Shown here: in pieces, positions 43,404 to 49,117 of the stretch
Layout: every line of letters begins with the position of its first letter
How positions within the stretch are numbered: the first letter of the stretch is position 1
NCBI GenBank assembly: GCA_963823665.1
Contig: CAWGMQ010000011.1
Location: 416,001 to 480,000 of the forward strand
DNA: 64,000 bases
Direction of reading: 5' to 3'
Source: an uncultured Planctomycetota bacterium
GTDB taxonomy: Bacteria; Planctomycetota; Planctomycetia; Isosphaerales; Isosphaeraceae
The notes under the pieces: generated by a model
Told to the model about the DNA's origin: nothing
Database searches by the model: none
The model's input: only the letters and a program-made list of their open reading frames with translations
Made by a program: the position numbers and the translations under genes

Positions 43404-44069
43404 CTACCGCGTGACTCTCTTGCCGCAGGCATCGATCAACCACCATTCTCCTCCTTCCCAGAATGGAGGTGCGTCGTAGAACACACGAAGGGTTCCTCCC
43501 ATGTGAACCCTGGCTATGCCGCCCTGAAAGCTGTGTGCTTCGTTAAAGACGGGCTCGATTTGGTACTTGCCGGTCTTGTCGATGTAGCCCCAGGCGTCAC
43601 CTCGCCCATAGACAGTTGTTTTCTTGATTCGCACGGCGGCGAGCCCTTCACTGAAGTCGTGCGCTTCACCAAATCGTGGGCTGATCACCACTTTCCCCTC
43701 ATGGTCAATGTAACCGTATGATGAATTCTCATCGCTCTGGGCCTCACCGCCGCGCACGATGACCACCGCCAGCCCCTGATGAAACTGCTCCGCCCAGCCG
43801 TCCACGCTCAGAACTGCATTTCCTATTCGGTCAATGAAACGGGTGCGCCAGACCTCTCCCGGAAGGCTCCGATCGATATGCTCAGGCGCGAGTCCTTCAA
43901 GAAAATCGCCCGTTTCGGTTTGCGATCCTCCGCTGCCTGTGTGCCCCGAATCCGGGCTGTCGACAACGTGGGTGGGACCGACGAGAACAAGGGCCACGAC
44001 CAAGATCGTTCCCGTGGCTGCAACAAGAAAGCGGAATGCGATTTTCTTCAATGACACGCCTGATATCAC
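43404..44069 (-). CDS. WG-repeat (KWG-like) protein with N-terminal membrane anchor
   Basis: FHQGLAVV..YGYIDHEGKVVISPRF..FSEGLAAV..WGYIDKTG..FQGGIARV. Confidence 0.82.
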   Translation of the reverse strand: MISGVSLKKIAFRFLVAATGTILVVALVLVGPTHVVDSPDSGHTGSGGSQTETGDFLEGLAPEHIDRSLPGEVWRTRFIDRIGNAVLSVDGWAEQFHQGLAVVIVRGGEAQSDENSSYGYIDHEGKVVISPRFGEAHDFSEGLAAVRIKKTTVYGRGDAWGYIDKTGKYQIEPVFNEAHSFQGGIARVHMGGTLRVFYDAPPFWEGGEWWLIDACGKRVTR

Positions 44070-44258: not shown

Positions 44259-44681
44259 TGACCGGGGAGGGGCTCGAACCCTCGACCAACGGATTAACCT
44301 ACCTCATCGGCTTTCGCCGACCGCGTGGAATCGAGTACCGGGTGCTTTCGGGTGCAGCGGCAATCGAATCTGGCGTTGAAAGTCTGGACTATACCATCGC
44401 CATCGCAGGCGTGCCGCGTCTAGTCTCTGAGGCTGAGACCGATCAAGGACCGGACTCTTGCCTGCTGATTACCCAATCCGCCCACTTTTCAAACCGTCGC
44501 GCTTGCCGTTACCGGCTTCGCTGTGGTGCAGGCGGCTCTCAGGGCGTTCCAGCAAATTGCGGCATTCACTCGTCGCGGTTCGGCTTCTTCCCGCGCGAGG
44601 CTCCTGAGCTTCGATCTCCCTTGGTACTTACCTGACTGCTCCCTGTGAAGTCCGTTGCTCTACCGACTGAGCTACCCGGTC
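44259..44681 (-). tRNA. trnK: tRNA-Lys(UUU), intron-containing. 5' exon 44681-44648, 3' exon 44297-44259, CCA not encoded.
   Basis: Spliced sequence GACCGGG TA GCTC AGTCGGTA GAGC A ACGGA CTT^TTAA TCCGT TGGTC GAGGG TTCGAGC CCCTC CCCGGTC A forms a perfect cloverleaf with discriminator A73. Confidence 0.9.
44298..44647 (-). ncRNA. Group I self-splicing intron (350 nt, no ORF), probably subgroup IC with a P5abc extension
   Basis: P AATTTGCTGGAAC, Q AATCAGCAGG, R CCTCAGAGACTAGA, S ATGGTATAGTCC. Pairings P3 TGCCGC/GCGGCA, P4 TGCTG/CAGCA, P7 GACTA/TAGTC. Preceded by U and ends in G. Confidence 0.93.
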
Positions 44682-44953
44682 TACGGACATACAGATTAAG
44701 GCAGCGAACCGCGCACGTCCAGCCAGGACCGATCTGACACCCTCGCGCTGGATGATGTACACGGCGTGACGCGGGGGCTAGAATGAGTGCGTGGCAGGAG
44801 GTCTCGCTGCAAGCGGCGATGCAGGCGGCCGGTTCCGCGGCCCGGATCCGAGGGGCGTGGGGCCGACTCACTGAGCCCGCACGCGGACGGTTCGGCCCGT
44901 GAATTTCGTTCCGTGCCGGAGAACGCACGCCCCCAACGCTCGAGGGAGACTTG

Positions 44954-49117
<4,164 letters not shown>

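Follow-up and report, generated by a model that had tools for sequence, protein, structure and literature searches.

A group I intron splitting the anticodon of a standalone tRNA-Lys(UUU) gene of Isosphaeraceae

Introduction

The 64,000-nucleotide (nt) stretch of DNA examined here (hereafter the window) corresponds to positions 416001-480000 of contig C11 in the 16.46-Mb, 12-contig genome of an uncultured planctomycete of the family Isosphaeraceae. Its minus strand contains a tRNA-Lys(UUU) gene whose halves, one of 34 nt (44681-44648) and one of 39 nt (44297-44259), are 350 nt apart, and the insert between them is a real and well-supported group I intron. We are highly confident that this standalone gene is split between U34 and U35 by a vertically inherited intron that lacks an open reading frame (ORF), and that would presumably catalyse its own removal, perhaps without the aid of proteins. 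A preliminary description of the same DNA had proposed that this combination of host and insertion site is undescribed. That claim of novelty does not hold, given that the intron is found in most other genomes of the family, including those of named genera, and it is weakened further by related tRNA-Lys introns in other phyla. What the present analysis adds is a corrected internal guide, proof of the splice register, the family-wide distribution of the intron and a guide that is common to both lysine isoacceptors.

Results

A split tRNA gene with a conserved ribozyme fold

Joining the two halves by script yields a sequence of 73 nt, which ARAGORN types as tRNA-Lys(ttt), with a regular cloverleaf, the anticodon loop CU-UUU-AA and the discriminator A. 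The preliminary description had located these halves exactly, and the features that it reported for the insert (a length of 350 nt, a final G, the elements P, Q, R and S, and a GAAA-capped hairpin) are all present, while its expectation of a planctomycete-like host was borne out. Its assignment of the insert to group I is now backed by a match to the full RF00028 model and by covariation among 30 homologs. The precursor span of the split gene is approximately 423 nt (Table 1). Among the 30 homologs the exons are near-invariant, the discriminator is A without exception, and the intron ranges from 277 to 353 nt in length. The ORFs that overlap the intron have no match in Pfam, and no homing endonuclease was found within or beside it.

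Evidence stronger than the model match comes from an alignment (A1) of the gene from 30 family genomes, which has 458 columns and a mean column identity of 71%. From this alignment alone, RNAalifold predicts 83 pairs, of which 24 show compensatory change, and recovers P2, P3, P4, P5 together with a lengthy P5a-c arm, P6/P6a/P6b and P8, besides the tRNA arms and the 3' hairpin with its GAAA cap. A structure drawn by hand holds 92 pairs, comprising the tRNA arms, P1 formed with the conserved guide described below, P2-P8 with the P7 pseudoknot, and the 3' hairpin. In this structure 98.0% of cells are paired, versus 32-41% when the partners are slid by one to three columns, and 29 pairs have changed on both sides, versus 7-11 in the slid controls. 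None of 500 shuffles matches the observed value on any of five measures; it is important to note that the shuffle control overstates the support since the sequences are kin, and that the slid control is free of this weakness.

The helices P3-P8 follow one another in the order of a group I core, with P7 crossing P3, and covariation backs this arrangement. All cells are paired in P3, P4, P5, P6, P7 and P8, as are 95.4% of those in P6a/b. The last pair of P7 varies, being A-U in 19 homologs, C-G in 10 and U-A in one. P4 and P5 never vary and therefore have no say for or against pairing, and P6 shows at most one-sided variation. The P5 arm is longer than we would expect for subgroup IC3.

A further complementarity exists between GGACU of the anticodon arm (44653-44649) and AGUCC of the S element (44390-44386), both of which are invariant. 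RNAalifold pairs these segments (columns 29-33 and 322-326 of A1) in place of P7, and this pairing could represent a competing fold of the precursor.

Table 1. Exons, intron and structural elements of the split tRNA-Lys(UUU) gene, in window coordinates. Paired cells and compensatory pairs refer to the alignment of 30 homologs
Feature	Position	Strand	Evidence or remark
5' exon of tRNA-Lys(UUU): acceptor strand, D arm, 5' anticodon-stem strand, C32 U33 U34	44648..44681	-	
Group I intron, 350 nt, no ORF matching any protein family	44298..44647	-	RF00028; covariation in 30 homologs
Variable P1 extension, intron positions 1-43, holds the proximal GGAG	44605..44647	-	Unalignable, often a hairpin
Internal guide GGAG, intron positions 44-47; probably pairs with C32 U33 U34 and the first intron base	44601..44604	-	Invariant in 30/30
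P2 hairpin	44569..44599	-	9 pairs, 3 compensatory, 94.3% of cells paired
P3, 5' strand; pairs with 44417-44412	44559..44564	-	6 pairs, 3 compensatory, 100% paired
P4, 5' strand, inside element P; partner 44468-44463 (element Q)	44549..44554	-	6 invariant pairs; P4 of RF00028
P5 and extended P5a-c arm, GUAA loop, A-rich internal loop	44472..44544	-	P5a, 7/8 pairs compensatory; distal helices covary
P6, P6a, P6b arm	44431..44462	-	5/8 P6a/b pairs compensatory
P7, 5' strand GACUA, inside element R; pseudoknot with 44391-44387	44421..44425	-	5 pairs, 1 compensatory, 100% paired
P3, 3' strand	44412..44417	-	Alignment of 30 homologs
P8 hairpin	44398..44411	-	4 pairs, 1 compensatory (G-C in 26, A-U in 4)
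P7, 3' strand UAGUC, element S	44387..44391	-	Alignment of 30 homologs
J7/9 and variable P9 region	44322..44386	-	Length and sequence vary; unalignable
Conserved 3' hairpin with GAAA tetraloop	44306..44321	-	6 pairs, 99.4% paired
Terminal intron G (omega G)	44298	-	G in 30/30
3' exon: U35 U36 A37 A38, 3' anticodon-stem strand, variable loop, T arm, acceptor strand, A73	44259..44297	-	

The genes that flank this locus encode a 1388-amino-acid WD40-repeat protein (44951-49117, plus strand), which lies upstream and is divergently oriented, and a 221-amino-acid WG-repeat protein downstream (43404-44069, minus strand). Neither neighbour points to a connection with the intron. A scan for sigma-70 promoters and terminators found no site on the strand of the gene, a result that is uninformative.

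The splice junction lies between U34 and U35

In the source genome, an intron at 33/34 and an intron at 34/35 would both have U at position -1 and G at the intron end, and therefore the lone sequence cannot decide between these registers. Comparison among the 30 homologs does decide. The base that precedes the 3' exon is G in all of them, and its own 5' neighbour varies among G, C, A and T. Since a terminal G is invariant at 34/35 alone, the register is 34/35 and the tRNA is Lys(UUU).

Natural alleles without the intron lead to the same answer. Such alleles were sought by means of the 5' exon in five family genomes without an intron match. Four of these relatives (G100, G102, G105 and G125) carry an uninterrupted tRNA-Lys(ttt) that equals the two exons joined (...GGACTT/TTAATCC..., with the slash at the joint); in the fifth, G127, the 5' exon found no match. 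When an intron-less allele is used as a query against the source genome, it aligns in two pieces at the exon positions, residues 1-34 with 100% identity and residues 35-73 with 97% identity, and no intact close copy is found elsewhere in that genome. Terminal-G invariance, the intron-less alleles and the two-piece alignment thus agree on the 34/35 splice site that was first proposed from the single sequence.

The internal guide of P1

The partner of the 5' exon in P1 is probably a conserved GGAG that sits directly 5' of P2, as judged from comparison of the homologous sequences. With this distal guide, the pairs C32-G, U33-A and U34.G are available in all 30 homologs, and the fourth pair, between the first intron base and the remaining G, is standard in 29. 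On this reading the 5' splice site follows U34, whose U.G wobble partner in every homolog is the second G in the guide, as is characteristic of group I introns.

The preliminary description had drawn P1 differently, as CUUC-ACAG-GGAG with a GGAG at intron positions 6-9. This proximal helix can form, and the U.G wobble was rightly placed on U34, but the proximal GGAG is not conserved: a GAG occurs within the first 15 intron bases of nine of the 30 homologs, at positions that vary. A local minimum free energy (MFE) fold takes the distal guide in 26 of 30 cases; the exceptions are the source genome, G002 and G034, which use a proximal GAG, and G019, which shifts the register. The 9-56 nt that separate the splice site from the guide among the homologs are best read as a variable P1 extension that often forms a stable hairpin, and inside this extension the proximal helix may arise as a rival or short-lived pairing. 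Because the exonic pairs are invariant, the assignment of P1 to the distal guide rests on conservation and on the architecture of guide followed by P2, and not on covariation.

Distribution within Isosphaeraceae and beyond

With the whole gene as the query, 32 of 36 other family genomes give a match, mostly over the full length and with 70-92% identity, and the other families of the class yield only tRNA-sized pieces. With the intron alone as the query, a match is found in 100 of 120 other Isosphaeraceae genomes. Among genomes of at least 90% completeness and at most 5% contamination, the intron is present in 44 of 47, with the source genome (G000) counted. One genus, g68, has the intron in none of eight genomes, and the three of these that were checked carry an intron-less gene.

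A search at the level of BLAST among 400 other genomes of the phylum found no intron match. This zero reflects a miss through sensitivity or sampling and does not speak for absence, because a scan of a species-level genome collection for an exact 24-base core motif found planctomycete-labelled relatives. The scan returned at least 118 stretches, of which 80 were examined, and its hosts include Singulisphaera, Paludisphaera, Aquisphaera, Tautonia, Tundrisphaera and many metagenome-assembled genomes (MAGs) of Isosphaeraceae. By ARAGORN in intron mode, 77 of the 80 loci examined are split tRNA genes. For the typing of junctions we required U at -1, G at the omega position and a 3-base anticodon, as a looser enumeration gave spurious anticodons. 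All 77 loci then allow a tRNA-Lys. Sixty-six are Lys(UUU) split at 34/35, with introns of 238-355 nt, and some of these are planctomycete-labelled genes that differ in the tRNA body and whose introns are shorter (238-259 nt). The remaining 11 are Lys(CUU) split at 35/36, and come from eight Pyrinomonadaceae, one other member of the Acidobacteriota, and one MAG each of Chloroflexi and Clostridia.

Three of the loci examined received no ARAGORN call. Two of them (L154 and L158) look like split tRNA-Lys genes. L158, from the contig end of a MAG labelled 'Candidatus Kuenenia stuttgartiensis', appears to be a split tRNA-Lys(UUU) that resembles the planctomycete-labelled locus L135 and the unlabelled L154. 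The third (L164, from a Candidatus Paceibacterota MAG) has the motif in a group I intron of an apparent 23S rRNA, and therefore the motif is not exclusive to tRNA-Lys introns. In addition, a MAG labelled 'Terriglobia' (L112) has a split tRNA-Lys(UUU) with the exons and intron start of Isosphaeraceae; mis-binning may explain its label.

Signs of integrating elements accompany some alleles. Directly downstream of the intron-less gene, a tyrosine-recombinase gene (PF00589) is present in two of four loci and a SIR2-like gene in one (L088:1575-3032 in G102, L090:1575-3032 in G125 and L089:2-1099 in G105 for these downstream genes). This arrangement suggests that islands have integrated at intron-less tRNA-Lys(UUU) alleles, and intron loss might be linked to such elements. 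Extra copies of the last 45-68 bases of the gene, consisting of the 3' exon and 6-29 intron bases, are present in four genomes (G001:C5:3268713-3268780 and 3272251-3272295; G008:C14:327788-327853; G010:C3:810447-810491; G031:C144:2478-2524). In G001, G008 and G010 they share a contig with the intron-bearing gene, at a distance of 2.5-21 kb, and in G031 the copy is on another contig. These copies resemble att repeats, as would be left by islands integrating into alleles that contain the intron.

Two lysine isoacceptors with a shared guide

In all 11 Lys(CUU) hosts the 5' exon ends in ...CUCU, and GGAG is located directly before a compact P2. In these hosts CUCU can therefore pair along its whole length with GGAG, which puts the wobble on U35. 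In Lys(UUU) hosts, CUU and the first intron base pair with the same GGAG, with the wobble on U34. The Lys(CUU) introns share the core motif with the intron studied here and are 54-61% identical to it. The differences between them lie in the host isoacceptor, in a splice site that is one base further 3', in a shorter length (247-282 nt), in a compact P2 with a GGAAAC loop and in a P1 extension that is nearly absent.

The 15 Lys introns compared with the studied intron are 54-76% identical to it, versus 45% for an intron in a CAU-anticodon tRNA gene of the same genome (described below), which sits on a very long branch. In a midpoint-rooted tree of 16 introns, the Lys(CUU) introns cluster with some of the Lys(UUU) introns with a support of 100/99. 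Because this tree is otherwise mostly unresolved and is rooted at its midpoint, we draw no direction of transfer from it.

Given these similarities, a single lineage of GGAG-guided introns might serve two isoacceptors across phyla through a jump between isoacceptors, followed by fixation throughout Isosphaeraceae and loss in one genus. We offer this scenario tentatively, and regard it as possible though somewhat doubtful. The jump would most simply have occurred by reverse splicing into a near-cognate anticodon loop, where the position of the U.G wobble would reset the splice site, and the loss in one genus could have come about through intron-less alleles brought by integrating elements.

Detection by standard tools

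The preliminary description warned that standard tRNA callers could miss the gene, and this is the case. In the 64-kb window, ARAGORN in its default mode reports no tRNAs and Rfam at the gathering score reports no matches. When 751 bases are searched with RF00028 under permissive filters, a match is obtained at 44657-44364 (minus strand) that covers the full model (1-253) with 34.7 bits and an E-value of 4.7e-07. The covariance-model check that had been proposed for the intron thus gave an end-to-end match, but with a score below the gathering score of 50 bits.

The performance of this model on the intron lineage is variable. The six Lys(CUU) introns tested score 56.1-76.6 bits and one Lys(UUU) relative scores 60.2 bits, all above the cut-off of 50, and three others score 35-44 bits. 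At E <= 0.001, no match is obtained in five of 14 loci of relatives, which are all four named Isosphaeraceae tested and one other planctomycete. With five loci unmatched and the others at 35-77 bits, RF00028 sees this lineage unevenly.

In intron mode, ARAGORN reports the region as tRNA-Asn(gtt) with a 350-nt intron at 33/34. The same mode typed Lys in only 17 of the 77 related split genes; the remaining types are mostly Asn, and also include Thr, Leu, Pro, Ser, Phe, Gln, Glu, Pyl and Stop. For this reason the intron register given by ARAGORN is unreliable, and annotation by this route will mislabel these genes, usually as Asn or some other type. Since the gene escapes default tRNA finders as well as Rfam run at the curated cut-off, Isosphaeraceae genomes will appear to be without an AAA-decoding tRNA.

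The tRNA set of the source genome

For a view of the whole tRNA set, we searched the genome with RF00005, scored 150 of 322 candidates and typed the loci with ARAGORN. At least 77 tRNAs were found. Among the matches listed, none is on C11, a standalone Asn(GUU) is on C8 and a standalone Lys(CUU) is on C2. One intact tRNA-Lys(UUU), with an RF00005 score of 63.2 bits, is located inside a dense, divergent tRNA array on C5. The split gene is therefore the sole standalone decoder of AAA among the matches listed, yet it is not the sole Lys(UUU) gene. The proposed check for an intron-free tRNA-Lys(UUU) accordingly has a divided outcome, with no standalone copy outside the C5 arrays and one intact copy within them. 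The suggestion that AAA decoding may depend on self-splicing is partly right, and is weakened by the intact array copy.

Divergent tRNA arrays occur at several places on C5, at ~949.6-951.4 kb (L032, L028), 874.3-875.5 kb (L039), 829-834 kb (L052) and 988 kb (L026). In these arrays 13, 10, 7 and 3 genes were typed, many with low RF00005 scores. They resemble the tRNA arrays that have been described in prokaryotes and mobile elements.

Elsewhere on this contig, at a distance of 73 kb, the genome has a second group I intron (C11:533412-533798, minus strand; L055:3413-3799), which is 381 nt long and scores 72.5 bits with RF00028. Its tRNA exons and junctions (...CUCAU/...G/AAUCCC) give, by eye, the anticodon CAU split at 36/37, and ARAGORN in intron mode miscalls this split tRNA as Gln(ctg). 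The other standalone CAU tRNAs of the genome are one initiator-like gene and one more, and therefore the host of the second intron probably supplies the third CAU tRNA that is needed (Met or Ile2).

Discussion

Splicing and alternative explanations

We propose that the ~423-nt precursor would be transcribed and that C32-U33-U34 would pair with the GGAG at 44604-44601 as P1, in which the U34.G wobble would mark the 5' splice site. Free guanosine would then attack this site, after which the terminal G (44298) would occupy the guanosine site in P7. Ligation of the exons would yield a normal 73-nt tRNA with the loop CU-UUU-AA. The exons are probably kept together by the anticodon stem instead of a P10 helix.

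Several observations weigh against this proposal or against parts of it. In soil and peat metatranscriptome runs, only small shares of the stretch (0.09-0.13) were found, and the contigs of four runs cover the intron cores of relatives along with both exon-intron junctions. The contigs of these four runs, which come from relatives and might include carried-over DNA, contain no exon-exon joint. Such a joint would in any case be ambiguous, as intron-less alleles with the same exons exist. Given the origin of the contigs, the possible presence of DNA and this ambiguity, the metatranscriptomes decide neither the transcription nor the splicing of the studied gene. Other points of the same kind concern the RNA itself. 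The local MFE fold of the P1 region favours the proximal GGAG in the source genome, and the three exonic P1 pairs never vary. Both P10 and P9.0 were sought by eye, and nothing consistent or convincing was found. The RF00028 score is below the gathering score, and some relatives are without a match to the model at E <= 0.001. Finally, because of the intact Lys(UUU) on C5, the gene may not be strictly essential in this genome.

Four alternative explanations deserve consideration, two of which would alter the reading of the sequence. There is next to no chance that the gene is a tRNA-Asn(GUU) whose intron is located one base further 5', at 33/34. This is the call that ARAGORN makes in intron mode, and both U at -1 and G at the intron end hold for it in the source genome. 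However, the last base of such an intron would vary among G, C, A and T over the 30 homologs, and the intron-less relatives read CUUUUAA; on these two grounds the Asn identity was rejected. The discriminator is A throughout, where bacterial tRNA-Asn would be expected to carry G73; a standalone Asn(GUU) already exists on C8, and the boundary chosen by ARAGORN gives a wide range of amino acids, and Lys in a minority of cases, when applied to the related loci. We also find it quite improbable that the working P1 of the source genome is the proximal helix, in which CUUC pairs with the GGAG at intron positions 6-9. This helix can form and is the one used by the MFE fold of the source genome, and the sister genome G001 has a GAG at the same position. 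Nevertheless, a minority of homologs have a proximal GAG and its position drifts, whereas the distal GGAG is invariant, is taken by the MFE fold in most homologs and adjoins P2 throughout the lineages examined, the Lys(CUU) hosts among them.

The other two alternatives accept the structure and question its activity. The intron could be a dead relic and the gene a pseudogene, with AAA being read by the intact tRNA-Lys(UUU) of the C5 array. The score of 63.2 bits for that array copy, the RF00028 score below the cut-off and the lack of a spliced product in the metatranscriptome contigs are consistent with this idea. Even so, it is highly improbable, given that the helices keep pairing via compensatory changes over 30 genera-level relatives and that the exons are near-invariant, features which a decaying sequence would not keep. 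That 100 of the 120 other Isosphaeraceae genomes searched have retained the intron also argues against a relic. Somewhat less improbable, but still unlikely in our view, is the possibility that the RNA has a group I fold whose efficient splicing needs a host protein such as a chaperone or a maturase-like factor. The missing P10 and P9.0 helices would fit such a need, folding could be impeded by the large, variable P1 extension and P9 region, and the S element has a complement in the anticodon-arm strand GGACU, with which RNAalifold mispairs it. Against a protein requirement, there is no ORF in the intron and no conserved neighbouring gene was seen, and self-splicing in vitro is established for related tRNA introns of bacteria, the Azoarcus intron being one example (PMC13168695).

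Thus, a vertically inherited and ORF-less group I intron at 34/35 of tRNA-Lys(UUU) is the explanation that we favour. It offers a clean case of a long-lived ribozyme that has been passed on vertically in an important tRNA gene. Natural intron-less alleles fix its junction, and its sister introns use the same guide in a shifted register. No new mechanism is opened by these findings.

Comparison with known systems

The classical bacterial hosts of group I introns are tRNA-Leu(UAA), tRNA-fMet and tRNA-Ile(CAU), together with tRNA-Arg(CCU). A 2020 preprint by Williams (10.1101/2020.01.27.920355), whose approach is the same as ours, extended these four types to 21 on the basis of 5292 split tRNA genes. 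Its main text names Leu.3Ug, Arg.5Ug, fMet.2Ug, Ile2.5Ug and Leu.3Cg, the words Lys and Planctomycetes are absent from that main text, and its table and figure are images. Passages of a review (PMC3984707) likewise mention neither Lys nor Planctomycetes, and our literature search found no paper text that names a group I intron in a bacterial tRNA-Lys(UUU). Cyanobacterial tRNAs, including Lys(CTT), have been reported to contain 'group I introns' of 22-49 nt (PMC5733544). We set these aside as a precedent since, at the lengths given there, they are too short for a ribozyme core.

One further type in the Williams preprint (10.1101/2020.01.27.920355) has the same 34/35 site and the same 5' exon end, CUU, as the intron described here, and differs in its host tRNA. 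A more detailed comparison is possible with the intron of the Azoarcus pre-tRNA-Ile(CAU), which belongs to IC3, the subgroup to which a group I intron database assigns the four classical bacterial tRNA introns (10.1101/2020.01.27.920355). Like the studied intron, it lacks an ORF, interrupts a bacterial anticodon loop, has its guide immediately 5' of P2, and combines a short P1 with a GNRA-capped peripheral hairpin. The Azoarcus intron differs in its host tRNA, in its site (36/37) and in its length of 205 nt (PMC13168695), and it is the second intron of our source genome, at C11:533412-533798, that shares its host type. The tRNA-Lys(UUU) intron of Isosphaeraceae, by comparison, has a long and variable P1 extension and an extended P5 arm.

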